64,000 nucleotides of DNA, from assembly GCA_947460345.1 (NCBI GenBank), contig CANHGM010000002.1, positions 113,504 to 177,503 on the forward strand, given 5' to 3'. The translations under genes and the position numbers were made by a program. Each line of letters opens with the position of its first letter. Within the stretch, counting starts at the first letter, position 1. The DNA comes from Bacteroidota bacterium. Lineage in GTDB: Bacteria > Bacteroidota > Bacteroidia > UKL13-3. Under the pieces are notes generated by a model. The model had not been told where the DNA came from, searched no databases, and saw nothing but the letters and a program-made list of their open reading frames with translations. Of this stretch, positions 3,474-18,155 are shown piece after piece.

Positions 3474-5054
3474 ATGGTTAGTATCAGACCGGATGAGGTA
3501 TCAGCAATAATTCGCGAACAGCTTACAGGCTTTAAAAGCGAAGCACAACTAGAAGAAGTAGGAACAGTACTTCAAGTTGGAGACGGTATAGCACGTATTT
3601 ACGGACTCACCAAAGTTCAATCAGGTGAGTTAATTGAGTTTAGTAACGGACTAAGAGGTATCGTACTAAATCTTGAAGAAAACAACGTAGGTGCTGTGTT
3701 ATTAGGTTCTTCAGACAACGTAAAAGAAGGAGATAACGTTAAACGTACTGGAAAAATTGCCTCTATTAACGTAGGTGAAGGTATGTTAGGACGTGTAGTG
3801 AACACCCTAGGTGCTCCTATAGATGGTAAAGGACCAATTCCTGGTGAATTGTTTGAAATGCCAATTGAGCGAAAAGCTCCTGGCGTACTTTTTAGAGAGC
3901 CAGTTAAAGAACCACTTCAAACTGGTATCAAAGCTATTGATGCAATGATTCCTATTGGCCGTGGTCAAAGAGAATTAGTTATTGGTGACCGTCAAACTGG
4001 TAAATCTGCCGTTTGTATAGATACCATTATCAACCAAAAAGAATTTTTCGATGCTGGTAAACCTGTATATTGTATTTATGTGGCTATCGGTCAAAAAGCA
4101 TCTACTGTAGCTCAAGTGGTGAAAACCCTTGAAGAAAACGGTGCAATGCAATATACTGTGGTAGTAGCGGCAACCGCTGCTGACCCAGCTCCAATGCAAT
4201 TCTACGCTCCTATGGCTGGTGCTGCAATTGGTGAGTATTTCCGCGACCTTGGTAAACCTGCTTTGATTGTTTATGACGATTTGTCTAAACAAGCGGTAGC
4301 TTATCGTGAGGTGTCTTTGCTTTTGAAAAGACCTCCAGGCCGTGAGGCTTATCCAGGTGACGTGTTCTACTTACATAGCCGTTTGCTTGAGCGTTCTTGC
4401 AAATTGAATGCAAATGACGAAATCACTTCTAAAATGAACGACTTACCTGATTCTTTAAAAGGTAAAGTTAAAGGTGGTGGATCATTAACAGCTCTTCCAA
4501 TTATCGAAACTCAAGCTGGCGACGTATCTGCTTATATCCCAACCAACGTAATCTCAATTACCGATGGTCAAATATTCTTGGAGTCTAACTTATTCAACTC
4601 TGGTGTTCGTCCCGCTATCAACGTGGGTATCTCAGTAAGTCGTGTGGGTGGTAATGCTCAAATCAAGTCTATGAAAAAAGTAGCTGGTACCTTAAAACTT
4701 GACCAAGCTCAATACCGTGAACTTGAAGCATTTGCTAAATTTGGTTCTGACTTGGACGCAGCTACAAAATCAGTGTTAACTAAAGGTGCTCGTAACGTAG
4801 AAATTCTTAAACAAGCTCAATTTAGCCCACTCACAGTAGAGAAGCAAACAGCAATCATATACTTAGGTACTAAAGGTTTGTTAAACGAAGCATCTATTAA
4901 TAAAGTAAGAGACTTTGAATCTTCTTTCTTACAAGTATTAGAAACCAAACATGCCGACACTTTAGCTGCTATTAAAAAAGGAGTTATTGATGATAGCGTA
5001 ACTTCAGTTTTAGAATCAGTAGCAAAAGATTTGATTTCTAGTTATAAAGACTAA
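3474..5054 (+). CDS. atpA: F0F1 ATP synthase subunit alpha
   Basis: 526 aa with P-loop GDRQTGKS plus the highly conserved alpha-subunit blocks [18 protein letters not shown] and [29 protein letters not shown]. Confidence 0.97.
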
Positions 5055-5974: not shown

Positions 5975-6010
5975 AAAACCTCAGATATATATCTGAGGTT
6001 TTAATTTTTA
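5975..6010 (+). terminator. Rho-independent terminator after atpG
   Basis: Perfect hairpin aaaacctcagatat/atatctgaggtttt, followed by a T-rich tract. Confidence 0.6.
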
Positions 6011-6061
6011 TTTAATATTAAATTCTAATACTTCTTCTTTTACTTTTACTTTGCATTTCTT

Positions 6062-8527
6062 TTGAATTATAAATTATCACAAATAGCAAGCATTGTTGGA
6101 GGCGAACTAATTGGTAAAGACTATAGCATTGCTCAAGTTTTTACTGATAGCAGAACTATTTCTAATATAAACCCTGAAACAGCTCTTTTTGTTGCATTAA
6201 ATAGTCAAAGGCAAAATGGTGAAAGATATATTACAGACTTATATCAATTAGGTTTTAGATATTTCTTATCAGAAAATGTATCTGAAGCGTATACTAATAT
6301 GTCTTATATTATTGTTCAGAATAGTCTTGATGCAATTCAGAAATTAGCAACATACCACCGCAAACTATTTAGAATGCCTTTGATTGCCATTACTGGCTCA
6401 AATGGAAAAACTGTAGTAAAAGAATGGTTGTTTCAACTACTCCATTCTAGTTTTAATATAGTAAGAAGCCCAGGCAGCTACAATTCTCAACTTGGTGTAC
6501 CACTTTCGCTTTTGCAAATGGAATCATCTCATTCTCTTGCTATTATTGAAGCTGGCATTTCTAAACCAAATGAAATGCAGAAATTACAACATATTATAAA
6601 TCCTGATATGGTAATTCTTACTCATATAGGGTCTGCACATGACGAAGGCTTTGAGAATAAAGAACAAAAAATTAGAGAAAAACTTAAGCTTGCTGAAAAT
6701 GCAGATTGCTTGGTGTATAACAAAGATGACGAACAAGTAAATAAATTAGTAAGTGAGTTTCTAGCTCATCACTTTATTAAATCATATAGTTGGAGCCTTA
6801 ATTCTGATGCTACAGTAAGTGTATACAAAATAGTAAAAAACATTGACCAAACGGAAATTCATTTTTTATACAAGTCAACCTCGTTAAATTTTTGTATCCC
6901 TTTTACTGATGATGCGTCTATTGAGAATGCTCTCTCTTGTGTTTGCTCCCTTATAGCTATTGAGAGATTAGATTTGGATATTCTATTAGCATTTAGTAAG
7001 CTTGTTTCTGTTTCAGGAAGACTTGAACAAAAGAAAGGAATTAATAATAGTTTGCTAATCAATGATAGTTACAGTAATGATTTTCATTCTCTTCAAACAG
7101 GATTGAATTTTATGGATAGACAAAATCCATTACTAGCAAAAACTGTGATATTGAGCGATATGTTAGAAAGTGGTATTAGTAAAAAAGATTTATATCAAAA
7201 GATTAGTGAGCTTTTAAACAAACATAAAATAAATAAACTTATAGCTATTGGTGCTGAAATATCAGAATGTAAAAACTATTTTAAAAGCATTCCTCATTCT
7301 ATATTTTATAATTCAATTGAAGAATATTTGAATAATTTTAATAGTAGAATATTTGGTAATGAAATAATTTTACTAAAAGGAGCAAGGATGTTTCATTTTG
7401 AAAGGATACTATTATTATTAGAAAAGCAAGTTCATCAAACTGTTTTGGAAATTAATTTAGATGCAATAGTTCATAACTTAAATATTTATAAAAATCAACT
7501 GTCAAAACACACTAAATTGATGGTAATGGTAAAAGCATTTAGTTATGGTAGCGGCAGTTTTGAATTAGCTAAGTTATTACAATACCAAAGAGTAGATTAC
7601 CTAGCTGTAGCATATGAGGATGAAGGTATGACACTTAGGAATGCAGGAATTACACTTCCTATAATGGTTATGAATGCTTCTGCTAAGGCTTATAAGCTCA
7701 TGCTAGACTATGATATTGAACCTTCTATATATTCAATTGAGATGCTCAGAAGTTTGGCAAGCTTTATACAAAACTCAACTAAGGAAATTGGAGTACATTT
7801 AGAATTTGAAACGGGAATGAACAGACTTGGTATTTCAATAGATGATATTGATGAAGTCATCACAATTTTAAATTTACATCCTCAAATAGAAATAAAATCT
7901 ATATTTACACATATGGCCTCGGCAGATGATTCTTCTGATGATGAGTATACACAAAAGCAGCTTTTGTTGTTTAAAGAAGCCCATTCAAAAGTTTGCCTTT
8001 CGTTAAAGAAAAATATATTATCTCATGCTGCAAATTCTGCTGGAATTTCTAGGTTTAATGGTTATAATTTAGGAATGGCTAGACTTGGAATTGGCTTGCA
8101 TGGAATAGACCCTTCAACAGAAATTCAAAAACAATTGAAGCCAGTTTCGAAACTAAAGTCTATTATAACCCAAGTACGGTTGGTTAAAAAAGGTGAGACC
8201 ATTGGATATAATAGAAAAACCAAGGCTGAACATGATTTCAACATGGCTGTAGTTGCAATAGGCTATGCTGATGGTTTGAATAGAATGCTTAGCAACAGAA
8301 AGGGCAAACTATATGTTAATGGAGTATCTTGTGAGATTGTAGGGAATGTATGTATGGATATGTGTATGATAGATTTAGGAAATCTAATAGTATATGAAGG
8401 ACAAGAAGTTATTGTATTTGAGGACATCTGTCAATTGAATGCTTTGGCCAAATCTTGTCAGACTATTGTATATGAAGTACTAACCGGAATATCAGAAAGA
8501 ATTACAAGGGTTTATTTACAAGAATAA
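6062..8527 (+). CDS. murF: Bifunctional UDP-N-acetylmuramoyl-tripeptide--D-alanyl-D-alanine ligase (MurF) / alanine racemase (Alr) fusion
   Basis: N-terminal half has the Mur ligase features (ATP-binding ITGSNGKT, catalytic and C-terminal Mur domains). C-terminal half has alanine racemase features: PLP-lysine motif VMVKAFSYGSG (compare AVVKANAYGHG) and the C-terminal beta domain (NVCMDMCMIDLG). Single 821-aa ORF. Confidence 0.8.
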   Translation: MNYKLSQIASIVGGELIGKDYSIAQVFTDSRTISNINPETALFVALNSQRQNGERYITDLYQLGFRYFLSENVSEAYTNMSYIIVQNSLDAIQKLATYHRKLFRMPLIAITGSNGKTVVKEWLFQLLHSSFNIVRSPGSYNSQLGVPLSLLQMESSHSLAIIEAGISKPNEMQKLQHIINPDMVILTHIGSAHDEGFENKEQKIREKLKLAENADCLVYNKDDEQVNKLVSEFLAHHFIKSYSWSLNSDATVSVYKIVKNIDQTEIHFLYKSTSLNFCIPFTDDASIENALSCVCSLIAIERLDLDILLAFSKLVSVSGRLEQKKGINNSLLINDSYSNDFHSLQTGLNFMDRQNPLLAKTVILSDMLESGISKKDLYQKISELLNKHKINKLIAIGAEISECKNYFKSIPHSIFYNSIEEYLNNFNSRIFGNEIILLKGARMFHFERILLLLEKQVHQTVLEINLDAIVHNLNIYKNQLSKHTKLMVMVKAFSYGSGSFELAKLLQYQRVDYLAVAYEDEGMTLRNAGITLPIMVMNASAKAYKLMLDYDIEPSIYSIEMLRSLASFIQNSTKEIGVHLEFETGMNRLGISIDDIDEVITILNLHPQIEIKSIFTHMASADDSSDDEYTQKQLLLFKEAHSKVCLSLKKNILSHAANSAGISRFNGYNLGMARLGIGLHGIDPSTEIQKQLKPVSKLKSIITQVRLVKKGETIGYNRKTKAEHDFNMAVVAIGYADGLNRMLSNRKGKLYVNGVSCEIVGNVCMDMCMIDLGNLIVYEGQEVIVFEDICQLNALAKSCQTIVYEVLTGISERITRVYLQE

Positions 8528-8530
8528 GAA

Positions 8531-9229
8531 ATGATAAAAGGCATTTTGTATTTAGTTCCTACACCCATTGGTATTAATAGTTTGATTTCTAGTCAAACCA
8601 AGGAATTGGTATGTAAGACTCGACATTTTATTGTTGAAACAGAAAAAGATGCTAGAAGGTTTTTGAAGCTTTGTGGTTATGATTTAAAGAATCATTATCC
8701 AGAATTTTATTTATTAAATGAACACAATGCTCATATGAGCATTGAAGAATACCTAAGCCCAATAAATCAAGGTTTCAATATGGTTATCATGAGTGATGCT
8801 GGAATTCCTTGTGTGGCAGATCCCGGTTATCAAGTTGTGAAATTGTGCCATCAAAAAGGAGTAGAGGTGATTCCTGTTTCAGGTTCATCATCAATTTTTC
8901 TTGCATTAATGTCTTCAGGATTTAATGGTCAAAACTTTTCTTTTCATGGATATTTACCTATGGACAAACAAGCACGTGCAGCTAAGTTAAAAAATATAGA
9001 ATTTGATATTTTTAAAAATAATACATCACATCTGTTTATAGAGACGCCATATCGTAACAATCAATTACTAGCTGACTTGTTACTGAACCTGCCTTCAGAT
9101 AGGCTTTTGTGTATTGCAATTGATATTGAAGGAGAGCACCAAATGATTAAAACTTTATCCATAAAAACTTGGAAAACTATGTCTGTAGTATTAGATAAAA
9201 GTCCAGCAGTTTTTGTTCTGGGGAAATAA
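8531..9229 (+). CDS. SAM-dependent methyltransferase, tetrapyrrole-methylase (RsmI-like) fold
   Basis: 232 aa with an N-terminal GILYLVPTPIG motif characteristic of the tetrapyrrole methylase superfamily. The 4-nt gap from murF-alr suggests co-transcription. Confidence 0.55.
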   Translation: MIKGILYLVPTPIGINSLISSQTKELVCKTRHFIVETEKDARRFLKLCGYDLKNHYPEFYLLNEHNAHMSIEEYLSPINQGFNMVIMSDAGIPCVADPGYQVVKLCHQKGVEVIPVSGSSSIFLALMSSGFNGQNFSFHGYLPMDKQARAAKLKNIEFDIFKNNTSHLFIETPYRNNQLLADLLLNLPSDRLLCIAIDIEGEHQMIKTLSIKTWKTMSVVLDKSPAVFVLGK

Positions 9230-9279
9230 TAAATTCTAACCAAATAGTTGATCCGGATTTATTATTTTAAAGTTTATTA

Positions 9280-9996
9280 TTATTTGATACCATCAGTTTC
9301 GCTTTTAATGTTTTTGCCATTTGATGAGGCTGATAATACTTTCCATTCTTCTCTATAGCCTACTTCAAATTCTTTTAAAAAGTTGATGTTTAATGTACGA
9401 ATTGAAACTCTTTGAGCTATTTCTCCAGCATTGTTTGTTTTAAAATCTTTTATTGCATATGATCTTCCAATTTGACGAATGATCTCTTTTTCACTTAAAC
9501 TAGATGTTTTTTGTTGTAATTTAACTTGGTCTACTATGTTGCAAGCTGAAATAAATGAACGGAATTGAGTTAACATTTCGAAAGTATCAACCTCTAACTT
9601 ACACTGAAACATAATACTTTTGTCTGGGCTATAAAGATAGAGTGCTGGCATAATTAATACACCATGCTTAGCAGCCATTTGTTTACCATATTTAGTTGAA
9701 ACGTCACCATTCATACAAATGTATCTATTCCTTATCGTACCTTTTACTTTAACATGATTCATGATTTCTCTCGAGAATTTCTTACTTGATAAGCAAGTTT
9801 GAGAATGGATATATATTAAAACAGGTTTGTTTTCAGTTTGTGCAATTTCAAAAACTTTTTCTTGAGATTCTTTCATCATATATTCTAACTTACCCTGAAC
9901 AAGTTGTTGTTGTGCACTTGATTCATAGGTATTAGTAACTATAATAGCCAAGCTAAATAAAATAGCTAATAGAATTTGATTGATAAAATTTTTCAT
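9280..9996 (-). CDS. Secreted hypothetical protein with thioredoxin-like central region
   Basis: 238 aa with a signal peptide ([29 protein letters not shown]). Its 3' end is duplicated in degraded form at 10139..10265. Confidence 0.5.
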   Translation of the reverse strand: MKNFINQILLAILFSLAIIVTNTYESSAQQQLVQGKLEYMMKESQEKVFEIAQTENKPVLIYIHSQTCLSSKKFSREIMNHVKVKGTIRNRYICMNGDVSTKYGKQMAAKHGVLIMPALYLYSPDKSIMFQCKLEVDTFEMLTQFRSFISACNIVDQVKLQQKTSSLSEKEIIRQIGRSYAIKDFKTNNAGEIAQRVSIRTLNINFLKEFEVGYREEWKVLSASSNGKNIKSETDGIK

Positions 9997-10138
9997 TGTG
10001 GTATTTTTTTAGAATTGTTTCATATATCCTTATGATAGTGTAAAATGCTTATAAGAACATAAATGAAACAATGTACAAATATACGATTATCTTATTAATT
10101 TAAAAATCCAAGATATTAAGCCTAGATTTTTTTATTTT

Positions 10139-10270
10139 TTATTCTTTAATCTTATTTAATACTAGCAGCTTCGCTTGTATTGTGTTTGCCATTTGAAGCA
10201 ACCAATACGTCCATTTTTCTCTATAACCTACATCAAATTCTTTGAAAAAGTTAATATTTTTTAAATTTGT
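10139..10270 (-). pseudogene. Degraded 3' fragment of a paralog of the 9280..9996 gene (insertion scar)
   Basis: About 120 nt with roughly 75-80% identity to 9280..9420. Encodes KNINFFKEFDVGYREKWT versus LNINFLKEFEVGYREEWK in the intact gene, then a frameshift. The 5' part of the paralog is absent and the JetC-like gene begins 94 nt further on. Confidence 0.45.
10241..10269 (+). promoter_or_regulatory. Candidate Bacteroidota sigma-A type promoter (TTTG -33 element, 17-nt spacer, TAAATTTG -7 element) for the 4-gene operon
   Basis: TTTG at 10241-10244 and TAAATTTG at 10262-10269 match the Bacteroidetes consensus TTTG-N17-23-TAnnTTTG. Located about 95 nt upstream of the ATG at 10364. Confidence 0.25.
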
Positions 10271-10363
10271 TTTAAATGAAAATATAACAATTTGTGTAAA
10301 AACTGTAAGTAACATCAAGTATATAAACATTAATATCGCAAGGTTTTTATAACATTCAAAAAC

Positions 10364-13006
10364 ATGCTGAATAAAATTATTTTAATCAATACAAAGGTTT
10401 ATCAAAAAGCAGAAATAAATATAGGTGATTGCGATTCATTACAACTTGTTGGGCCTAACAACGTAGGCAAGTCTACTTTGATATATGCACTCAATTTTTT
10501 GTTTGTAATCGATGGCAACAAAATGACATTTAGTGGCCAGAGAAGAGGAGACAAAGAAACTTTACACCATTATTTTCCTTCTCCAAATCAAAGTTATATT
10601 ATGTTTGAAATATTCAAGAAAACATATTATACTATTTTAGTTAAACGTGATACTGAAAGTAATTTAGAATATTATAAAATTGACCAAGCATACAATAAAG
10701 ATTTTTTTATTGATGTAGATAGCAAATTGTTAAAGTTTGAAGAAGTCAAAGAAAATTTGCTGAAGAAAGGAATAGCACTTCATGAATATAAAGATAAACG
10801 TGAAGTGTTTATGGATGTTTATCAAAGAGGCAGAAAGAATAATGGTGTAGTATGGCTAGATGATAAAGTGAGAATGGATGGGTTAAGCAACAATTTTTCT
10901 AAAATATATCGATATTTAATTAACACCAAGCTTATCACAAACAAAAATCTAAAAGAAGCTCTTTTAGTAGCTGACAATAGAGAAGCGGAAGAGTTGAATT
11001 TTTCTCAAAAACATAAGAAAGACATCACTGATTTATCTAAAATAAACAATGAAATTAGAAATGTAAAAGCTGTAAGAACTGATTTTGAAGAGTTTAGAGA
11101 AGCAGTTAGTCAGTATGCTGCCAGAAACCAAGCAATTGGTGAATTGTATTACGCATTTAACAAACAATATGAAGATGCTTTGCCCATATTGCAAAACAGT
11201 TTGATAAAAGAGAAAAGCGAAATGGACAGAATTCGTATTCATATAAACGAAGACCTGATGCCAAAGCAAGAAGAACTAACCCGCAAACAAGGTAAGAACG
11301 AAGCAGAGATTGAGAATAAACTATTTCAATTACAAGAGAAAGAAACCAAGTTGAAAATCATTAATGGGTATGAAGGGGTTCCAATGTTAGACTCTATGCT
11401 AGCCAATTATGACAAGACTAGAAAAGAAATTGAAAGTAGAATAACAATGGTTGATATACAGAATTTGACTGTTCAATCATTAGAAAATAAAATCAAAACT
11501 GCACAAGAAAGGAAAACAATCATAGATCAACAGATTAAAAACTTCAAAAATTTGTTGATACATAATATTGCAGATAAAGAGTCAGACAGAAAGTTGTTAA
11601 ATACAATTTTTTCAGAGCAAGTTAGTAGTTTGCCTGTTGATAGAATACTGAATAAGATAAAAAAGACTTCTAAAAGATTAAACTTATTTGATGGTGAGAT
11701 AGATATTTCAGATGGTTTGGTTTTGAAAGATTTAAAAACCGTTGAAGAGTTAAAAGCTGAACTAGCAGACTTTGCTTTAGAGTTAGAGCAAAATAAAATG
11801 CTACTAAAAGTGGTTATTGACAAACAGAAAACACAAGAAGAGCTTGAGGAAATTCTGAGAAAAATTGAGGAAATCAAGTTTAAATTAGCTGAGCTTAAAA
11901 CAAGACCTAAGCTCGAAGACAGTATTAATAAACTTAAAGATGAGTCAAAAGAACTTATACAAGCTAAAAACGAGTATGAGAAACAAGCTATAGTTTTAAA
12001 GAAAGAAATTGAGCAACAGCAGTTAAGACTAGAAGAAGCAAGAAATAATAGAGATAGATTTGATAATAGATTGACGGAGTTGCAAAACGCTAAGCAAGAA
12101 TTAGAGAGTTTTGGATTAGCATGCATTGAGTCTGAAAGTGAGCTAGATTTAGACAGAATATACAAACGTATAAAATTACAAATTGAAGATAGGAACAATA
12201 TCAAGTCTAGAAAAGACCATTTGTTCCAAAAGTTAAGAGAAAAGTTATTGAGCAATTTTGCTAGTGAAAATGAATTCATCAAGTTTTACGACGAAGAAAT
12301 AGGATTGATAGAAAGCAAGGAGAGAAGTATAGAAGGTTTGTTGCAAAGTATAAGTACACAATTTGCCAATCCAGCTCATACTTTAATGAAAAGATATGAG
12401 GAGTTTAAAGAATTTGTGACCAATAACTTTAACAATAAACTTGGCAAGACACGCATATCAGACATTGAATCGTTAAGAATTGAATTGATTGATAACAAGA
12501 AGTTGATGGAAGAGTTGAAGAAGATTAGTCAAATTCAGGAAGTAAAAGGCCAATTGATGTTTGATTTTGACCAGAGCGAAAACTTGAAGATTCTGAATCA
12601 TTATTTGGATACCGCTAAGAAAATTAAGTTTGAAGACTTATTCGATATGACCTTGCATTTAACCAGAAAAGGTCAAAGCAGGCCAGTTGATTTGAGTGAG
12701 CAAATAGAGAGTGATGGAACAGATAAAATGATAAGACTTGTGATTGTGATGAATATCATTAATAGATTGGCAATAACTGATGAAGAAAACAAAATAACTT
12801 TGTTTGTGGATGAGGTAGCAACAATTGATAAACAAAATAGACCTGAGTTGGTAAGGTTTTGCAGAGAGCATCATTTTATTCCGATTTTTGCTGCACCAGA
12901 CGCAGTACCAGGTTTTGGTAAGTATTATTTTATATATCCTTCTGCTGGTAAAATAAACATTAACGAAAATCATCATGCAGTATATGCTGAAAGTTTGGCC
13001 AATTAA
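10364..13006 (+). CDS. SMC/Rad50-like ABC ATPase with long coiled coil (JetC/MksB-like, compact)
   Basis: N-terminal Walker A (GPNNVGKST, aa 30-38) and an approximately 500-aa K/E/L/Q-rich coiled-coil middle. The C-terminal head has a signature-like SDGTDK, Walker B ITLFVDEV (D816/E817), D-loop ATID and H-loop REHHF. It is the first gene of a 4-gene overlapping operon. Confidence 0.6.
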   Translation: MLNKIILINTKVYQKAEINIGDCDSLQLVGPNNVGKSTLIYALNFLFVIDGNKMTFSGQRRGDKETLHHYFPSPNQSYIMFEIFKKTYYTILVKRDTESNLEYYKIDQAYNKDFFIDVDSKLLKFEEVKENLLKKGIALHEYKDKREVFMDVYQRGRKNNGVVWLDDKVRMDGLSNNFSKIYRYLINTKLITNKNLKEALLVADNREAEELNFSQKHKKDITDLSKINNEIRNVKAVRTDFEEFREAVSQYAARNQAIGELYYAFNKQYEDALPILQNSLIKEKSEMDRIRIHINEDLMPKQEELTRKQGKNEAEIENKLFQLQEKETKLKIINGYEGVPMLDSMLANYDKTRKEIESRITMVDIQNLTVQSLENKIKTAQERKTIIDQQIKNFKNLLIHNIADKESDRKLLNTIFSEQVSSLPVDRILNKIKKTSKRLNLFDGEIDISDGLVLKDLKTVEELKAELADFALELEQNKMLLKVVIDKQKTQEELEEILRKIEEIKFKLAELKTRPKLEDSINKLKDESKELIQAKNEYEKQAIVLKKEIEQQQLRLEEARNNRDRFDNRLTELQNAKQELESFGLACIESESELDLDRIYKRIKLQIEDRNNIKSRKDHLFQKLREKLLSNFASENEFIKFYDEEIGLIESKERSIEGLLQSISTQFANPAHTLMKRYEEFKEFVTNNFNNKLGKTRISDIESLRIELIDNKKLMEELKKISQIQEVKGQLMFDFDQSENLKILNHYLDTAKKIKFEDLFDMTLHLTRKGQSRPVDLSEQIESDGTDKMIRLVIVMNIINRLAITDEENKITLFVDEVATIDKQNRPELVRFCREHHFIPIFAAPDAVPGFGKYYFIYPSAGKININENHHAVYAESLAN

Positions 13007-13018
13007 TAACGAGTTGTT

Positions 13019-13858
13019 TTGAATCAAACGGAAAAGAACATATATACAAGATTGAAAAACGGAGAAAAGATTAGTAAAACACTAATTCCTAAAACAGTCT
13101 TTAATTCTACATTTTTTGAGAATATACTCAATGTGAAATTTATCCTCCAAGAGAAATCAGGAAGAGGGAGTATATTCTTTGTCAATAAACAAAAAGAAAA
13201 AGAGTTTGAAGAGTTCTATAAAAACAAGTTTCCTGATACATTTTCTAAACCATGTCAGAACAGAATAGAATCAACTGCTCAATTTAGAAATTCAAAAACA
13301 AGAACAAAAAGCCAAGACTCTATTTTTTTCTTAAGGGGAAGACATCTAACAATTAATGGTCAAGAGGTTAGCCCTATAAGTTATGAAAAAAAGTTTGGCG
13401 TTTTTGCAGTGAACAATGCCACAATAAGTGCAGATAAAATCTGTATCGTAGAAAATTTATCTGTATTTATGAGAGCAGAATCACTTTTGGGAAATGAATT
13501 TATATATATGATGAAATACGGAAGAGTTGGAAAGAATGATTTGATGAATATAGATTCTAATGAACTTTTGGTTTTTAATGATTATGACGAAACAGGAATA
13601 ATTGAGTTTTTAAGAATCAAGGAGAATAAAAACAATGCAACGTTTTTTATACCTAAGAATTTTAATGAGCTTCATAATAAATACTCTAGTGAAATTACCA
13701 AAGATTACAGAAATTATAAGTTAATAGAAGAATTAGTTGATTCAGATTTGAAAGATATTTTATATTTGAATAAAACAACTAATAGATTCTTAGAACAAGA
13801 ATCTTTGCTTATAAATATACAAAGTCAACAACAAACAGAACAAGTACATGCAAGCTGA
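13019..13858 (+). CDS. Toprim-like nuclease-candidate protein (resembles C-terminal DUF2220-type domain of JetD/MksG)
   Basis: 279 aa with a TTG start 12 nt after the upstream stop. Motifs ICIVENLSVF (E145) and LLVFNDYDETGIIEF (D188, D190) fit the Toprim E...DxD arrangement seen in Wadjet JetD. The N-terminal roughly 130 aa are basic. There is an 11-nt overlap with the next gene. Confidence 0.45.
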   Translation: MNQTEKNIYTRLKNGEKISKTLIPKTVFNSTFFENILNVKFILQEKSGRGSIFFVNKQKEKEFEEFYKNKFPDTFSKPCQNRIESTAQFRNSKTRTKSQDSIFFLRGRHLTINGQEVSPISYEKKFGVFAVNNATISADKICIVENLSVFMRAESLLGNEFIYMMKYGRVGKNDLMNIDSNELLVFNDYDETGIIEFLRIKENKNNATFFIPKNFNELHNKYSSEITKDYRNYKLIEELVDSDLKDILYLNKTTNRFLEQESLLINIQSQQQTEQVHAS

Positions 13859-15038
13859 ACCTAAAACCATACTCAATTTCTTAGCCACTCACTTTGATGC
13901 ATTGGTGTTTTTGTTTGAAAAGCAAAACAATGAAGGTAGTATTCATCTTAGAACTTTCAGAGAGTTTGAGGAAGAATTTGGACATATAGAGCAACAACTT
14001 TTTAGTTATAAGATATTACGTAAAATAGGTGAAGATGCTGAGTTCAGCGGTGAGATATATAACTTATTTCAATTTGTATTGAAGGAGTTTAAACCTATGT
14101 TGCCTGAAACTATTGAGAAATACAATAGCAGTATCAGTAATTTGTTTAGGTTGATTAGAGATGGCATTAATGGTGATAAACTAATATTGGCAAAACGAAT
14201 AGATGAACTATATAGCGAAGCTTTTTCTTTTGTTGAATCAGTGGAGAAAAACACGCTGAGATTGTTGGCTGAAACCAGAGAACTTAAATCAAATGTCACA
14301 AAAATTGACTATAAACAAAAAGTAGAGAAAGCATCTTTTTGGATTGATTATTATATACAACCTTTAAATAATATATTAGACATTAGTCATGCTCAAAGTA
14401 TAGTAAACAAACTGTTAGATATTTCAAATTTCATCAATATCAAGCGTTTAAATTTCCATGACGAAACCATTAGAAAGCAATTTGAAAAGTTGTATTTTTT
14501 TCTTATACAATCAAACCATGATTTGTTGTATCAATCAAAAATATTGACCAATGAGCTTTTACCGTTAATTGAACGTATCAGAACAGAGAGCTTGATACTT
14601 ACAGGATGGATTGAGTTTTTAAAAATACCAAATAAAGTTGAGGTTCCTAAACTTCTTAAAGTGTTAAGAGACAACCCATATAGCGATGAAATGTACTACC
14701 ATGCTAAAGATTTTGTGATGCAGTTTCAGAATATTGAAGACATTATAATTTCTGAAGAATTAGTTGAAACAGATATGTGGATTTTTAATAAAGAAAAATA
14801 TAAAGAAGATTTATTAAATAAAATGCCTGTGAACGACTTTTTTGAATGGGCTATAGAATCGTTGAACAAAGAATATAAAATGGCTGAAACAGAGAAGTTG
14901 TTTTCTTTAACATCACTATTGTTTGAAGATGATTTTGATAAAGAGTTTGATCCAATGAATAAACATGTATTCATTCAAACAACCCAGTTAAAACTAAAAG
15001 TACCTAAAATAAAAATATATAAACATGGAATATCCTAA
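13848..15038 (+). CDS. Hypothetical protein, candidate kleisin-like (JetA/MksF-position) subunit
   Basis: 396-aa helical protein whose start overlaps the preceding stop (ATG 13848, stop 13856-13858) and whose end overlaps the next start. No catalytic motif is evident, so the assignment rests on operon context only. Confidence 0.3.
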   Translation: MQAEPKTILNFLATHFDALVFLFEKQNNEGSIHLRTFREFEEEFGHIEQQLFSYKILRKIGEDAEFSGEIYNLFQFVLKEFKPMLPETIEKYNSSISNLFRLIRDGINGDKLILAKRIDELYSEAFSFVESVEKNTLRLLAETRELKSNVTKIDYKQKVEKASFWIDYYIQPLNNILDISHAQSIVNKLLDISNFINIKRLNFHDETIRKQFEKLYFFLIQSNHDLLYQSKILTNELLPLIERIRTESLILTGWIEFLKIPNKVEVPKLLKVLRDNPYSDEMYYHAKDFVMQFQNIEDIIISEELVETDMWIFNKEKYKEDLLNKMPVNDFFEWAIESLNKEYKMAETEKLFSLTSLLFEDDFDKEFDPMNKHVFIQTTQLKLKVPKIKIYKHGIS

Positions 15039-15585
15039 ACAGCATAAAGATATAGTTTCAGATTTGATGGCAGGAAAATTCTTGCTTCGCAATGATTTTA
15101 ATTTTGATATTTTAAAACAAAATAAAGATTTTTACACTAGTTTTTTTAAAGAGAGTTTTAACTATGGATTGCAGCTAGAATCTGAGTTTGCTTACCTTAT
15201 AAGTTTTGAAACTAAAGAACAACTTTCTAGAGATATATGCATACTGATTGCGTTACTAAGTTATGAGCTAGACAAAGACGGAAAAAACTTCATGGACCAA
15301 TTGAGTTATGCTTTGTTTGAGTATGACCAGATTGATAAATATTTCGAAGGCTCGTCCTATCAAGAACTGATTAAGTCTAATAAACAATTAAAAGATGTTG
15401 AGTCTAGACGAATGTTCTATAGAACTTTATCTAACAGGAATATCATTGAAAAAGAAGGTGAAAATCAATTTAGATTTACATCAGCAATTAAAGTTTTTAT
15501 AGATTTTGCAGTTGATTTTGCACAAGGTAAACTTGAGCAAGCAACAGTATCAATTGATGAAGACACAAGTTCTATTGACGAGTAA
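15025..15585 (+). CDS. JetB/MksE-like (DUF4194-like) small acidic protein
   Basis: 186 aa. The segment LMAGKFLLRNDFNFDILKQNKDFYTSFFKESFNYGLQLESEFAYLISFE resembles the DUF4194 consensus block (..LLkG.l.r......w..L......i.dYfa.lGLeL.lDEaeGyAfLr). Acidic C-terminus. Last gene of the operon. Confidence 0.4.
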   Translation: MEYPKQHKDIVSDLMAGKFLLRNDFNFDILKQNKDFYTSFFKESFNYGLQLESEFAYLISFETKEQLSRDICILIALLSYELDKDGKNFMDQLSYALFEYDQIDKYFEGSSYQELIKSNKQLKDVESRRMFYRTLSNRNIIEKEGENQFRFTSAIKVFIDFAVDFAQGKLEQATVSIDEDTSSIDE

Positions 15586-15590
15586 AGTTC

Positions 15591-16787
15591 TTAAACTTTT
15601 TCGTATATAATTGCCATTCCTTGACCTACGCCTACACACATGGTTGCTAAACCATATTTGATATTTTGTTTATGCATAGCATGAATTAAAGTTGTAGAAA
15701 TACGTGCTCCACTACAACCCAGCGGGTGACCAATAGCTATAGCACCACCATTAATATTTATTGTATCAGGGTTTAGTTCTAAATCTTGAATACAAGCCAA
15801 ACTTTGACTAGCAAAAGCTTCATTTAGTTCTATTAGGCCTAAATCTTTAATTGATATACCAGCACGTTTTAATGCTTTGTTGGTAGCAGGTACAGGCCCT
15901 ATACCCATAATGGCTGGGTCAACCCCTGCAGAGGCAGCAGAAACTACTCGAGCTAGTGGTTTTAAGTTGTGTTTTTTGACAAAATCTTCAGAAGCTAAAA
16001 TCAATGCTGATGCACCATCGTTAACCCCTGATGAATTGCCTGCGGTAACAGAACCATCTTTAGCAAAAGCAGGCTTCAATGCTGAAAGGGCTTCAAGCGT
16101 TGTTTCTCTTGGATGCTCATCTTTAGTAAATATCATAGGGTCACCTTTCTTTTGAGGTATTGAGACTTCCACTATTTCATTTTTAAAGTTGTTTTGACTG
16201 TGAGCAATTGCATATTTAAGTTGAGAACTTAAAGCAAATTTGTCTTGCATCTCACGTGAAATGGCATATTTTTTTGCGACATTTTCAGCTGTTTCGCCCA
16301 TGCTGTATGGATGATATAATTCAGCAAGTTTTTTGTTTGTAAATCTCCAGCCAATAGTGGTATCAAATATTTCAGGAGCTCTTGAAAAAGCAGCATCAGC
16401 TTTGGCCATAACAAATGGTGCCCTTGTCATACTTTCAGTACCTCCAGCTATATATAAGTCGCCTTCACCCATAGCAATAGCTCTATAAGCATCTGTGATG
16501 GCTTGAAGACCCGATGCACAAAGTCTGTTTACTGTATTACCACCTATGTTTATAGGCAATCCTGCTAACAACAAAGCCATCCTAGCTACATCTCTATTGT
16601 CTTCGCCTGCTTGGTTTGCGGCTCCTAAAATTACATCTTCAGTAAGTGAAAAATCAATGTTTGGGTTTCTAGCAACCAATGCTTTTAATACTACTGCTGC
16701 TAAGTCGTCGGGTCTTACTTGTGCTAAAGATCCACCATATCTTCCTACCGGAGTTCTTACAGCATCAATTATATATACTTGTTTCAT
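15591..16787 (-). CDS. Acetyl-CoA C-acetyltransferase (thiolase family)
   Basis: 398 aa beginning MKQVYIIDAVRTPVGRYGGSL with the active-site Cys region NRLCASGLQAI and the C-terminal GLATMCVGVGQG thiolase signature. Confidence 0.92.
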   Translation of the reverse strand: MKQVYIIDAVRTPVGRYGGSLAQVRPDDLAAVVLKALVARNPNIDFSLTEDVILGAANQAGEDNRDVARMALLLAGLPINIGGNTVNRLCASGLQAITDAYRAIAMGEGDLYIAGGTESMTRAPFVMAKADAAFSRAPEIFDTTIGWRFTNKKLAELYHPYSMGETAENVAKKYAISREMQDKFALSSQLKYAIAHSQNNFKNEIVEVSIPQKKGDPMIFTKDEHPRETTLEALSALKPAFAKDGSVTAGNSSGVNDGASALILASEDFVKKHNLKPLARVVSAASAGVDPAIMGIGPVPATNKALKRAGISIKDLGLIELNEAFASQSLACIQDLELNPDTININGGAIAIGHPLGCSGARISTTLIHAMHKQNIKYGLATMCVGVGQGMAIIYEKV

Positions 16788-16866
16788 TAGGTAACAAAGG
16801 TAAAAACTTTATGAACTAAATTGGTTAAAATATTAATTTTGAGTCTACACTCTTATTTTTGCAGAT

Positions 16867-17379
16867 ATGTTTACAAACAAATTGATAAGTTTATGTTTTA
16901 GTGTTGTGTTTTACTTAAATATACATGCACAAAATAATGCTATTCAAGGTATTGGAGGATCTTTCTTTGTTTTACCTAAAGGCAAAGCTTTAGCTATAAA
17001 TTATTCTTATAGAAATAACTTTAAAGACGTCGGAAATGGGAATAGTATTTCATTAACAATAGCACCTAGTGTTGCATTTCATTATGATTTTGTTAGCAGA
17101 GAACAATTTTTAATAGAAGCTCCAATTTTATTTTCATATAATGTGGGATATATGTCTACATCAAGTTCGAAAAACGATTTAGGTTTTTTTATTGGAGCAG
17201 GAGCAGGGTTGCATTATTTACAACATTATGGTTTGGGTTACGGCCCTGAATATTTTATAGGCATTAGAGGTGAACTTGCTAATAAACCTATTGAATTAAG
17301 AGCTAATTACCATCAAGATTTATTTTCAGTAACTTCAGATTTAATTTCTGTCCATCTTAATTTTTTACTCACTAGATAA
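16867..17379 (+). CDS. Hypothetical secreted/outer-membrane protein
   Basis: 170 aa with a signal peptide (MFTNKLISLCFSVVFYLNIHAQ). Alternating hydrophobic pattern and a C-terminal aromatic residue suggest a small beta-barrel. Confidence 0.35.
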   Translation: MFTNKLISLCFSVVFYLNIHAQNNAIQGIGGSFFVLPKGKALAINYSYRNNFKDVGNGNSISLTIAPSVAFHYDFVSREQFLIEAPILFSYNVGYMSTSSSKNDLGFFIGAGAGLHYLQHYGLGYGPEYFIGIRGELANKPIELRANYHQDLFSVTSDLISVHLNFLLTR

Positions 17380-17405
17380 CCTAAATAGTTTTATATTTGC
17401 AACCC

Positions 17406-17436
17406 TTCAGTCATATTCATTGACTGAATTTTATTT
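17406..17436 (+). terminator. Rho-independent terminator
   Basis: Hairpin ttcagtca-tattcat-tgactgaa, followed by ttttattt. Confidence 0.5.
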
Positions 17437-17561
17437 ACCATTAAACAAGTACGATATAGCAATAAAATTTACTTTTAATAGTTATTTAGGTTTTACAGGC
17501 ATTATTTTATATTTTTGCTAGAAATTAGTAAAAGCATAAATTATTTGCTAAGCAATAATAT

Positions 17562-18155
17562 ATGATAGCACACTTAGAAGGAAAATTTGAACAAATTACA
17601 CCAACCTTTATGGTTGTAGATTGCAATGGAGTTGGATATGGCATCCATATTTCTCTTAGTACATATGAAAAGTTAAAAGGTCAAAAATCAGGAAGAGTTC
17701 TTACTCATTTGTCTATAAGAGAAGATGATCACGTTTTGTTTGGGTTTGCTGATGAAACAGAAAGAGGTTTATTTAGACATTTAATTTCAGTCACAGGAAT
17801 AGGTCCTTCATCAGCAAGGATGATGTTGTCTAGTTTGTCTCCCAAAGAGCTTTTTTCAGTTATAGCCAATGGAAATGTAGGCTTGTTAAAAACAGTTAAA
17901 GGTATAGGCGATAAAACAGCACAACGTATTATTCTTGAATTGCAAAGCAAGTTGCAAAAGGAAGCAACTTCATCTACCTCAATTTTACCAGGGTTTGCAA
18001 ATATACATGGAGCCCAACAAGAAGCATCTGATGCTTTGGTAACATTAGGATTCAATAGAGCTTCTGTAGAAAAAGCATTAGCTAAAATTGCACAATCTAA
18101 TGGTAACAATCAGAGTATAGAAGATATGGTTAAACAAGCATTGAAAGTACTGTGA
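17562..18155 (+). CDS. ruvA: Holliday junction branch migration protein RuvA
   Basis: 197 aa beginning MIAHLEGKF. Contains the helix-hairpin-helix blocks LISVTGIGPSSARMMLS and LKTVKGIGDKTAQRIILEL, and a C-terminal RuvB-interacting domain. Confidence 0.92.
   Translation: MIAHLEGKFEQITPTFMVVDCNGVGYGIHISLSTYEKLKGQKSGRVLTHLSIREDDHVLFGFADETERGLFRHLISVTGIGPSSARMMLSSLSPKELFSVIANGNVGLLKTVKGIGDKTAQRIILELQSKLQKEATSSTSILPGFANIHGAQQEASDALVTLGFNRASVEKALAKIAQSNGNNQSIEDMVKQALKVL

Follow-up and report, generated by a model that had tools for sequence, protein, structure and literature searches.

Does a broken gene copy lying against the upstream region of a defence-like operon record the arrival of that operon, or did the gene decay beside an operon that was already there? 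The question arises in a Bacteroidota genome (GenBank assembly GCA_947460345.1, contig CANHGM010000002.1), of which a stretch of 64,000 nucleotides, here called the window, was analysed. An earlier note on this DNA had described a truncated, frameshifted paralog of a 238-aa gene upstream of an SMC-like gene, and had taken it as the boundary left by an insertion or replacement event in a tandem paralog pair, and hence as the left edge of an acquired block of ~5.3 kb. Here, we compare the locus with itself and with its relatives, and weigh an insertion against a deletion and other accounts of the fragment. The features concerned are collected in Table 1.

Table 1 Features of the locus, with positions in the window
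Feature	Position	Strand	Remarks
Intact proximal copy, 238-aa thioredoxin-like	9280..9996	-	ORF; Pfam Thioredoxin_7 9.3e-11, 42.2 bits (cut-off 27)
TATATTTG, Bacteroidota-type −7-like box	10076..10083	-	79 nt from box to ATG of intact copy
Weak terminator-like hairpin of remnant	10102..10131	-	RNA fold −8.4 kcal/mol, z = −2.2
Distal paralog remnant	10130..10259 (possibly to 10293)	-	last ~35-50 codons, stop codon and start of 3′ flank
63-aa ORF	10139..10330	-	spans operon upstream DNA, junction and frameshifted remnant; called as a gene in five public assemblies
Candidate Bacteroidota-type operon promoter, TTTG-N17-TAAATTTG	10241..10269	+	last base 95 nt before SMC ATG
Putative deletion junction zone	10260..10293	.	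34 AT-rich bases; weak alignment to paralog and to L006 SMC upstream region
Native SMC upstream region, probably retained after deletion	10294..10363	+	homologous to L006 1448-1520
SMC/JetC-like ATPase, 880 aa	10364..13006	+	Walker A GPNNVGKS at residue 30, Walker B LFVDE at residue 813
Compact JetD-like Toprim, 279 aa	13019..13858	+	family-level matches; window protein itself sub-threshold
396-aa protein in kleisin (JetA/MksF) position	13848..15038	+	putative role, from conserved operon position only
MksE/JetB-like KITE subunit, 186 aa	15025..15585	+	Pfam PF21980 MksE 3.1e-19, 70.4 bits (cut-off 27)

A decayed paralog beside an intact thioredoxin-like gene

The intact copy encodes a thioredoxin-like protein whose N-terminus resembles a signal peptide, and lies downstream of a MurF-alanine racemase fusion (MurF-Alr) and an RsmI-like methyltransferase gene. 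Its family is tiny, with ten 90%-identity clusters among 5.8 billion protein clusters, and the alignment of its members has an invariant C68 and S71, which form a CxxS motif. The TATATTTG box upstream of the gene is, judged by its sequence, likely the promoter of the intact copy. A metagenome-assembled scaffold has the same sequence as the window, the arrangement of which is shared by four further assemblies.

Local alignment of 9260-10000 against 10100-10363 paired 9260-9391 with 10133-10259 at a score of 117, compared with 23.75 ± 2.49 and a maximum of 35 in 300 shuffles, and a repeat search recovered two collinear direct-repeat blocks, one between 9258-9324 and 10130-10196 (78%) and one between 9342-9391 and 10210-10259 (88%). 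The similarity of ~120 nt to the 3′ end of the 238-aa gene, which the earlier note had illustrated with strings that are indeed present in the sequence, is thereby borne out. Of 108 positions aligned within the coding region, 89 are identical (82% at the nucleotide level), 24 of 35 residues agree at the protein level, and the similarity reaches into the 3′ flank beyond the stop codon. When set against the intact copy, the remnant has undergone an in-frame loss of 3 nt and a loss of 1 nt at ~10208/10209, the latter breaking the frame after KEFDVGYREKW, just where the break had been reported; past the frameshift, the original frame resumes in the +2 frame as VLVASNGKHNTSEAASIK, followed by the stop codon. 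The start codon and the 5′ part of the gene are absent. Solid homology to the paralog stops at 10259, with a weaker, gapped continuation possible to ~10293, which agrees with the previously proposed end at about 10265, and the SMC-like reading frame starts at the position given before. Taken on these alignments, the remnant is the 3′ end, decayed and presumably non-functional, of what was once a second thioredoxin-like gene.

The same SMC-like gene beside an intact tandem pair in a relative

The sole informative relative is L006, a 12-kb MAG contig of GCA_016197355.1, which carries in order MurF-Alr, the methyltransferase gene, two tandem 234-aa thioredoxin-like genes, a T9SS-cargo gene and, on the opposite strand, an SMC-like gene. 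The contig stops within the SMC gene, and the comparison covers MurF-Alr through the SMC start. Amino acid identity to the window is 72% for MurF-Alr, 82% for the methyltransferase and 90% for the first 482 codons of the SMC-like gene, measured against the 880-aa protein of the window, and homology extends to the DNA ahead of that gene (window 10420-10289 against L006 1391-1520, 83%). The shared genes are alike in order and orientation. Both 234-aa copies are intact, each with its own terminator and its own promoter-like box, GTTAATTTGTACCATTG, which is related to TATATTTG of the window and whose presence upstream of both copies indicates that the duplicated unit included the promoter. The intact copy of the window is the positional equivalent of the proximal copy of L006, and the T9SS-cargo gene encodes 482 aa with X25, CBM20 and Por_Secre_tail domains.

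As the same SMC gene stands beside the intact pair in L006, the operon did not truncate the distal copy; and since a truncated gene cannot be rebuilt, the distal copy was still complete in the ancestor, where the operon already lay near it, and was truncated later. This argument leans on a MAG contig, which may be misassembled, but MurF-Alr, the methyltransferase, the thioredoxin-like genes and the SMC start all lie there in the order and orientation of the window, which speaks against a misassembly.

The earlier note had expected syntenic relatives to lack the operon; the one found carries two intact copies together with the SMC-like gene. It thus confirms that a tandem paralog pair once stood here, and contradicts the reading of the remnant as an insertion boundary. 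No genome with an empty site, that is, the order methyltransferase, thioredoxin-like, thioredoxin-like, thiolase, was found among the relatives, the others of which lie on contigs that are too short (L087 and L088) or show no synteny, as around the more distant homologs of the thioredoxin-like and methyltransferase genes (L007-L010). A genome-contig scan with the 238-aa protein yielded no relative, a metagenome-contig scan with a 9-sequence alignment of the thioredoxin-like family yielded nothing, and a metagenome-contig scan with the SMC protein added no contig.

Age and origin of the second copy

The L006 copies share 72% identity with each other in protein and 74% in DNA, and for each a closer relative exists in another sample (P0002 at 74%, P0004 at 91%), which indicates that the duplication is old. 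The divergence between the remnant and its neighbour is about as large as that between the two L006 copies.

The remnant might instead never have been a full gene, having arisen in the lineage of the window by duplication of no more than the 3′ end of its neighbour. Such an origin would explain why the remnant is closest in nucleotide sequence to its own neighbour, at 82% as against 66-73% to the L006 copies, but this within-genome similarity is also explicable by gene conversion or a shared AT drift, and a divergence of 18% fits an old paralog. Several further features argue against a partial duplication. A full second copy occupies exactly this position in L006, and the remnant has a terminator relic of its own, a weak hairpin whose counterpart in the alignment is the strong terminator (−20.6 kcal/mol) of the proximal copy in L006. 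In addition, the frameshift-corrected tail of the remnant, SNGKHNTSEAASIK before the stop codon, is typical of the family and nearer to the family consensus (ending in SNGKHKNSEAASIK in P0002) than that of the neighbour, which ends in SSNGKNIKSETDGIK. We therefore regard a partial duplication as very improbable. The assignment of the remnant to a distal-type or proximal-type lineage is equivocal, as it matches all closer copies at 20-25 of 35 residues, with mixed nucleotide scores.

Divergence of the operon and its flanks

Had the operon been inserted into the tandem pair or replaced part of it, by itself or within a larger block, the remnant would be the left insertion scar. The remnant does adjoin the upstream region of the operon, and homologs of the operon occur in differing neighbourhoods elsewhere, as would be expected of a cassette that has moved over evolutionary time. 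However, besides the same SMC gene, upstream DNA and orientation beside an intact pair in L006, the divergence of the locus speaks against an arrival that produced the remnant. Between the window and L006, synonymous divergence (pS) reaches 0.84 in the SMC gene, 0.81 in MurF-Alr and 0.74 in the methyltransferase, all saturated, which indicates that the operon diverged together with its flanks. The SMC gene evolves more slowly at the protein level (dN 0.068, against 0.206 for MurF-Alr), and its high protein identity reflects this strong purifying selection; recent horizontal transfer as the source of the 90% identity was considered and ruled out by the saturated synonymous sites.

The GC content of the operon (0.28-0.33) is that of its flanks, the two borders of the block share no k-mer of 10 nt or longer that could represent border repeats or target-site duplications, and no integrase, transposase or other mobility gene was found among the ORFs of 6000-18000. 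A partial gene copy at the edge of a defence-like block resembles the scars of genomic islands, but these differ from the present locus, where an integrase, att-like direct repeats and a composition shift are all missing, and where the block is as diverged as its flanks and coexists with the intact target in L006. Taken together, these observations make an insertion scar highly unlikely; the proposed left edge of an acquired block is not supported, and nothing here points to a recent arrival of the operon.

On a longer time scale, homologs of the operon at 60-82% SMC identity lie in unrelated neighbourhoods, and a thiolase, thioredoxin-like or methyltransferase gene was found near the operon in none of 70 GTDB-species loci. 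The unrelated neighbourhoods imply rearrangement over long times, either of the cassette itself or of the genomes that surround it, and it is possible that the operon was acquired at this locus in an older event unrelated to the remnant.

A deletion model for the remnant

We consider it very likely that the remnant is the leftover of a deletion that took place in the lineage of the window, later than the presence of the operon. In the proposed ancestor, a tandem pair of thioredoxin-like genes would have stood beside the RsmI-like methyltransferase gene, with a repeat unit of ~0.9 kb and a promoter and terminator for each copy, and the Wadjet-like SMC operon would already have lain further along in its present orientation. 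A single deletion would then have taken the first ~590 nt of the distal copy, its promoter and the DNA up to the upstream region of the operon, which in L006 is occupied by the 482-aa T9SS-cargo gene. On the coordinates of L006, such a deletion would run from ~1521-1548 to ~3890-3925, a size of ~2.4 kb, and would have left the remnant fused to DNA that lies 70-100 nt before the SMC start codon; the 1-nt loss would have shifted the frame of the remnant at that time or earlier. The junction is placed within 10260-10293, and no more finely, because this DNA is AT-rich.

We infer the single event, the exact size of the deletion and the ancestral presence of the T9SS-cargo gene from the comparison with L006. 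The T9SS-cargo gene may also have been gained later, within the L006 lineage, in which case the deletion would have been smaller. A T9SS-cargo gene lies upstream of the thioredoxin-like gene in L088 as well; it has only the sorting domain in common with the L006 gene, and was for this reason dropped as a sign of the ancestry of the latter.

The remnant left by the proposed deletion resembles pseudogene relics known from tandem paralog arrays, with which it shares the 5′ truncation, the loss of promoter and start codon, the frameshift, the decaying terminator and the full-length counterpart kept at the equivalent position in a relative. It differs from them in nothing unusual except that it adjoins DNA upstream of a Wadjet-like operon, and is an ordinary deletion relic of a known kind.

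The 63-aa ORF and a candidate operon promoter

The remnant DNA might nevertheless have a function, either in a small protein encoded by the 63-aa ORF or as a promoter recruited by the operon. Gene callers have annotated the ORF in five assemblies, but it combines intergenic DNA with the frameshifted remnant, it has no Pfam match, and the sole strain difference inside it, at 10232, is non-synonymous. From this composition, the 63-aa ORF is most simply read as a chimeric pseudo-ORF.

As for a promoter, the TTTG-N17-TAAATTTG motif that had been pointed out as a candidate is present, with its −33 TTTG within the remnant and its −7 box at the junction. Motifs of this type number 8 in the window, where shuffles give 4.05 ± 1.8, and three of them closely precede long genes, which would favour a recruited promoter. 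However, L006 has a near-identical box, TAAATTTA, at an equal distance from the SMC gene (90 nt before the ATG) with no remnant nearby, so that the −7 element may be native. The N17 spacer is shorter than usual for Bacteroidetes promoters. A scan of 9150-10450 for sigma-70 promoters, the scope of which leaves out Bacteroidota promoter types, returned 10 sites against 9.8 ± 3.1 expected, the level of chance, and the same promoter/terminator scan returned no terminators.

The deletion may have rebuilt the predicted promoter of the operon from remnant DNA, in which case the −7-like box may be native and the −33 TTTG may be all that the remnant supplied. Overall, we hold a functional role for the ORF or the remnant DNA to be improbable.

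A divergent Wadjet-like operon next to the remnant

The operon had been called defence-like, and its genes support this description, with an SMC-like ATPase followed by a JetD-like protein, a protein in kleisin position and an MksE-like subunit. In the 880-aa SMC-like protein, the Walker A and B motifs lie ~780 residues apart, and its family matches are weak and N-terminal (DUF3584 at 2.9e-07 and 28.9 bits, below the cut-off of 31; PADLOC JetC1 at 6.5e-06). The 279-aa protein belongs to a family with 117 representative clusters, and E145, D188, D190 and G193 are invariant in 60 aligned homologs, the pattern of a Toprim E and DxD. Among these 60 homologs, 32 match Pfam PF09983 JetD_C (best 1.5e-10) and 23 match PADLOC JetD1 (best 1.9e-12), and with a single exception the PADLOC families matched are JetD models. 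At the level of its family, the 279-aa protein thus appears to be a JetD-like Toprim with the catalytic E and DxD, and a predicted nuclease.

The 396-aa protein had no Pfam, PADLOC or PDB match in a scan of 30 family members. Searches of the PDB by sequence and by profile with the 279-aa and 396-aa proteins gave chance matches or none, and single-sequence AF2 models of the two were unusable (pLDDT 33 and 42, respectively). The L015 ortholog of the MksE-like protein has a weak JetB match.

Bacteroidota account for most of the at least 70 species that carry the operon. With the JetD-like protein as query, 70 GTDB-species loci were found, and 68 of them have the order SMC, JetD-like, 396-aa and MksE as far as the contig reaches; in each of the two exceptions, L036 and L084, one component went undetected. 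A three-gene version that lacks the JetD-like gene exists in close relatives at 77-82% SMC identity and in one at 60%.

Based on its predicted proteins, the operon is a divergent Wadjet-like system, for which plasmid restriction is a predicted role. With Wadjet/JetABCD systems (MksBEFG, EptABCD; anti-plasmid SMC systems of types I-III), it shares the MksE/JetB KITE subunit and, at the level of the family, the JetD-like Toprim, beside an SMC-like ATPase with Walker motifs but weak JetC/DUF3584 matches and a fourth protein in the kleisin position. The canonical Wadjet order is A-B-C-D, as the JetABCD naming implies, and the operon of the window differs from it in running C-D-A-B. It also has a short SMC protein of 880 aa, a compact JetD-like protein of 279 aa and a putative kleisin that sequence comparison fails to recognise, and the A, B and D proteins of the window are called by no PADLOC (v2) model, all of which sets the operon apart from known systems, as do the close relatives that have a three-gene version minus the JetD-like gene. 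Wadjet systems have been reviewed, and their three types differ in operon organisation (PMC10586767; bioRxiv 10.1101/2025.03.10.642339).

Discussion

The reading from which this analysis set out has been upheld in part: a 5′-truncated, frameshifted paralog remnant does lie upstream of the SMC-like gene, but its reading as the boundary of an inserted block is contradicted by L006 and by the analyses of divergence, composition and borders. A single relative sufficed to reverse the inferred event, from an insertion to a deletion; where a truncated paralog adjoins a defence-like operon, relatives should accordingly be compared before an insertion scar is inferred. The remnant itself is a routine gene relic of little significance; what it offers is a correction of annotation, as the 63-aa "gene" of five public assemblies is probably a chimeric pseudo-ORF.

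Of the two, the neighbouring operon holds more interest. It is conceivable, though on balance doubtful, that it represents an undescribed Wadjet-like lineage, found mainly in Bacteroidota and marked by the order C-D-A-B, a compact Toprim, a family-less protein in kleisin position, an SMC protein under housekeeping-grade selection, and forms with and without the nuclease. If such a lineage exists, its forms with and without the nuclease would match a shift between a role in plasmid defence and an MksBEF-like one at the chromosome.

The Trx-like family and the remnant beside the operon

The Trx-like family represented by the intact gene beside the operon is very small, comprising ten clusters within a 5.8-billion-cluster database. 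An alignment of the family (A3) revealed a CxxS motif, invariant across its members, in place of CxxC, an N-terminus that appears signal-peptide-like, and a conserved C-terminal extension of ~100 residues that matches no known domain. Next to the intact gene lies the remnant, the decayed 3′ end of a distal Trx-like paralog, over which five public assemblies annotate a 63-aa ORF as a gene. This ORF is a chimera that joins DNA upstream of the operon, across the deletion junction, to the frameshifted remnant.

A strain variant of the window (L005) shares 99.77% identity with it across 14 kb, with 20 of the 32 differences concentrated in the methyltransferase gene, the Trx gene and the remnant, corresponding to a density of about 1.1% in this cluster versus about 0.1% in the operon. 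The cluster may represent a recombination tract or may reflect relaxed constraint. One of the changes, at position 10232, converts a D codon of the remnant into an E codon, as in the intact Trx copy, a possible hint of gene conversion.

Features discussed in the text, with their coordinates
Feature	Contig or locus	Position	Length or strand
MurF (Mur ligase)-alanine racemase fusion	window	6062-8527	821 aa
Cluster of strain differences	window	8479-10232	
Trx-like gene	window	9280-9996	
63-aa ORF	window	10139-10330	minus strand
Wadjet-like four-gene operon	window	10364-15585	
JetD-like Toprim gene	window	13019-13858	279 aa
Gene for the 396-aa protein	window	13848-15038	
MksE-like and thiolase gene ends	window	15585-15591	
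Region just past MurF-alanine racemase	L006	9245-11895	
T9SS-cargo and Trx-like genes	L088	2-3140	

Neighbouring genes

The MurF-alanine racemase fusion is identical in length in the relative's contig L006, and is 824 aa long in locus L087. Just past it, L006 contains a 158-aa fragment of an IS1-family transposase and two 235-aa genes separated by one 97-aa gene, which suggests local rearrangement activity in this lineage. In a more distant relative (L088), a T9SS-cargo gene is located immediately upstream of the Trx-like gene on the same strand, and its product has only the sorting domain in common with the T9SS-cargo protein of L006. At the other end of the operon, the stop codons of the MksE-like gene and the convergent thiolase gene are 5 nt apart, a gap too small for a terminator.

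Composition and spread of the Wadjet-like operon

The operon encodes, in order, SMC, JetD-like Toprim, the 396-aa protein and MksE, and this order is kept in 68 of the 70 GTDB-species loci (L017-L086) found with the JetD-like query, the hosts of which are mostly Bacteroidota, together with Sulfurimonas, Sulfurovum and one Muiribacteriota MAG. Three of the four operon proteins of the window were not recognized by PADLOC v2 models. Sequence comparisons with Pfam, PADLOC and the PDB yielded no match for the 396-aa protein, which occupies the kleisin position, even with 30 homologs included in the scan, and a single-sequence AF2 model predicted an all-helical structure with low confidence.

A three-gene version of the operon without the JetD-like gene, packed tightly between housekeeping genes, was found in L011, L012, L014, L015, L016, L090 and L091, where SMC identity to the window is 77-82% in close relatives and 60% in one carrier. 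Hundreds of full-length homologs are ~60% identical to the window SMC. Given that the JetD-like gene is absent from the three-gene versions of relatives, the nuclease subunit seems to have been repeatedly gained or lost, while the SMC core remained highly conserved.
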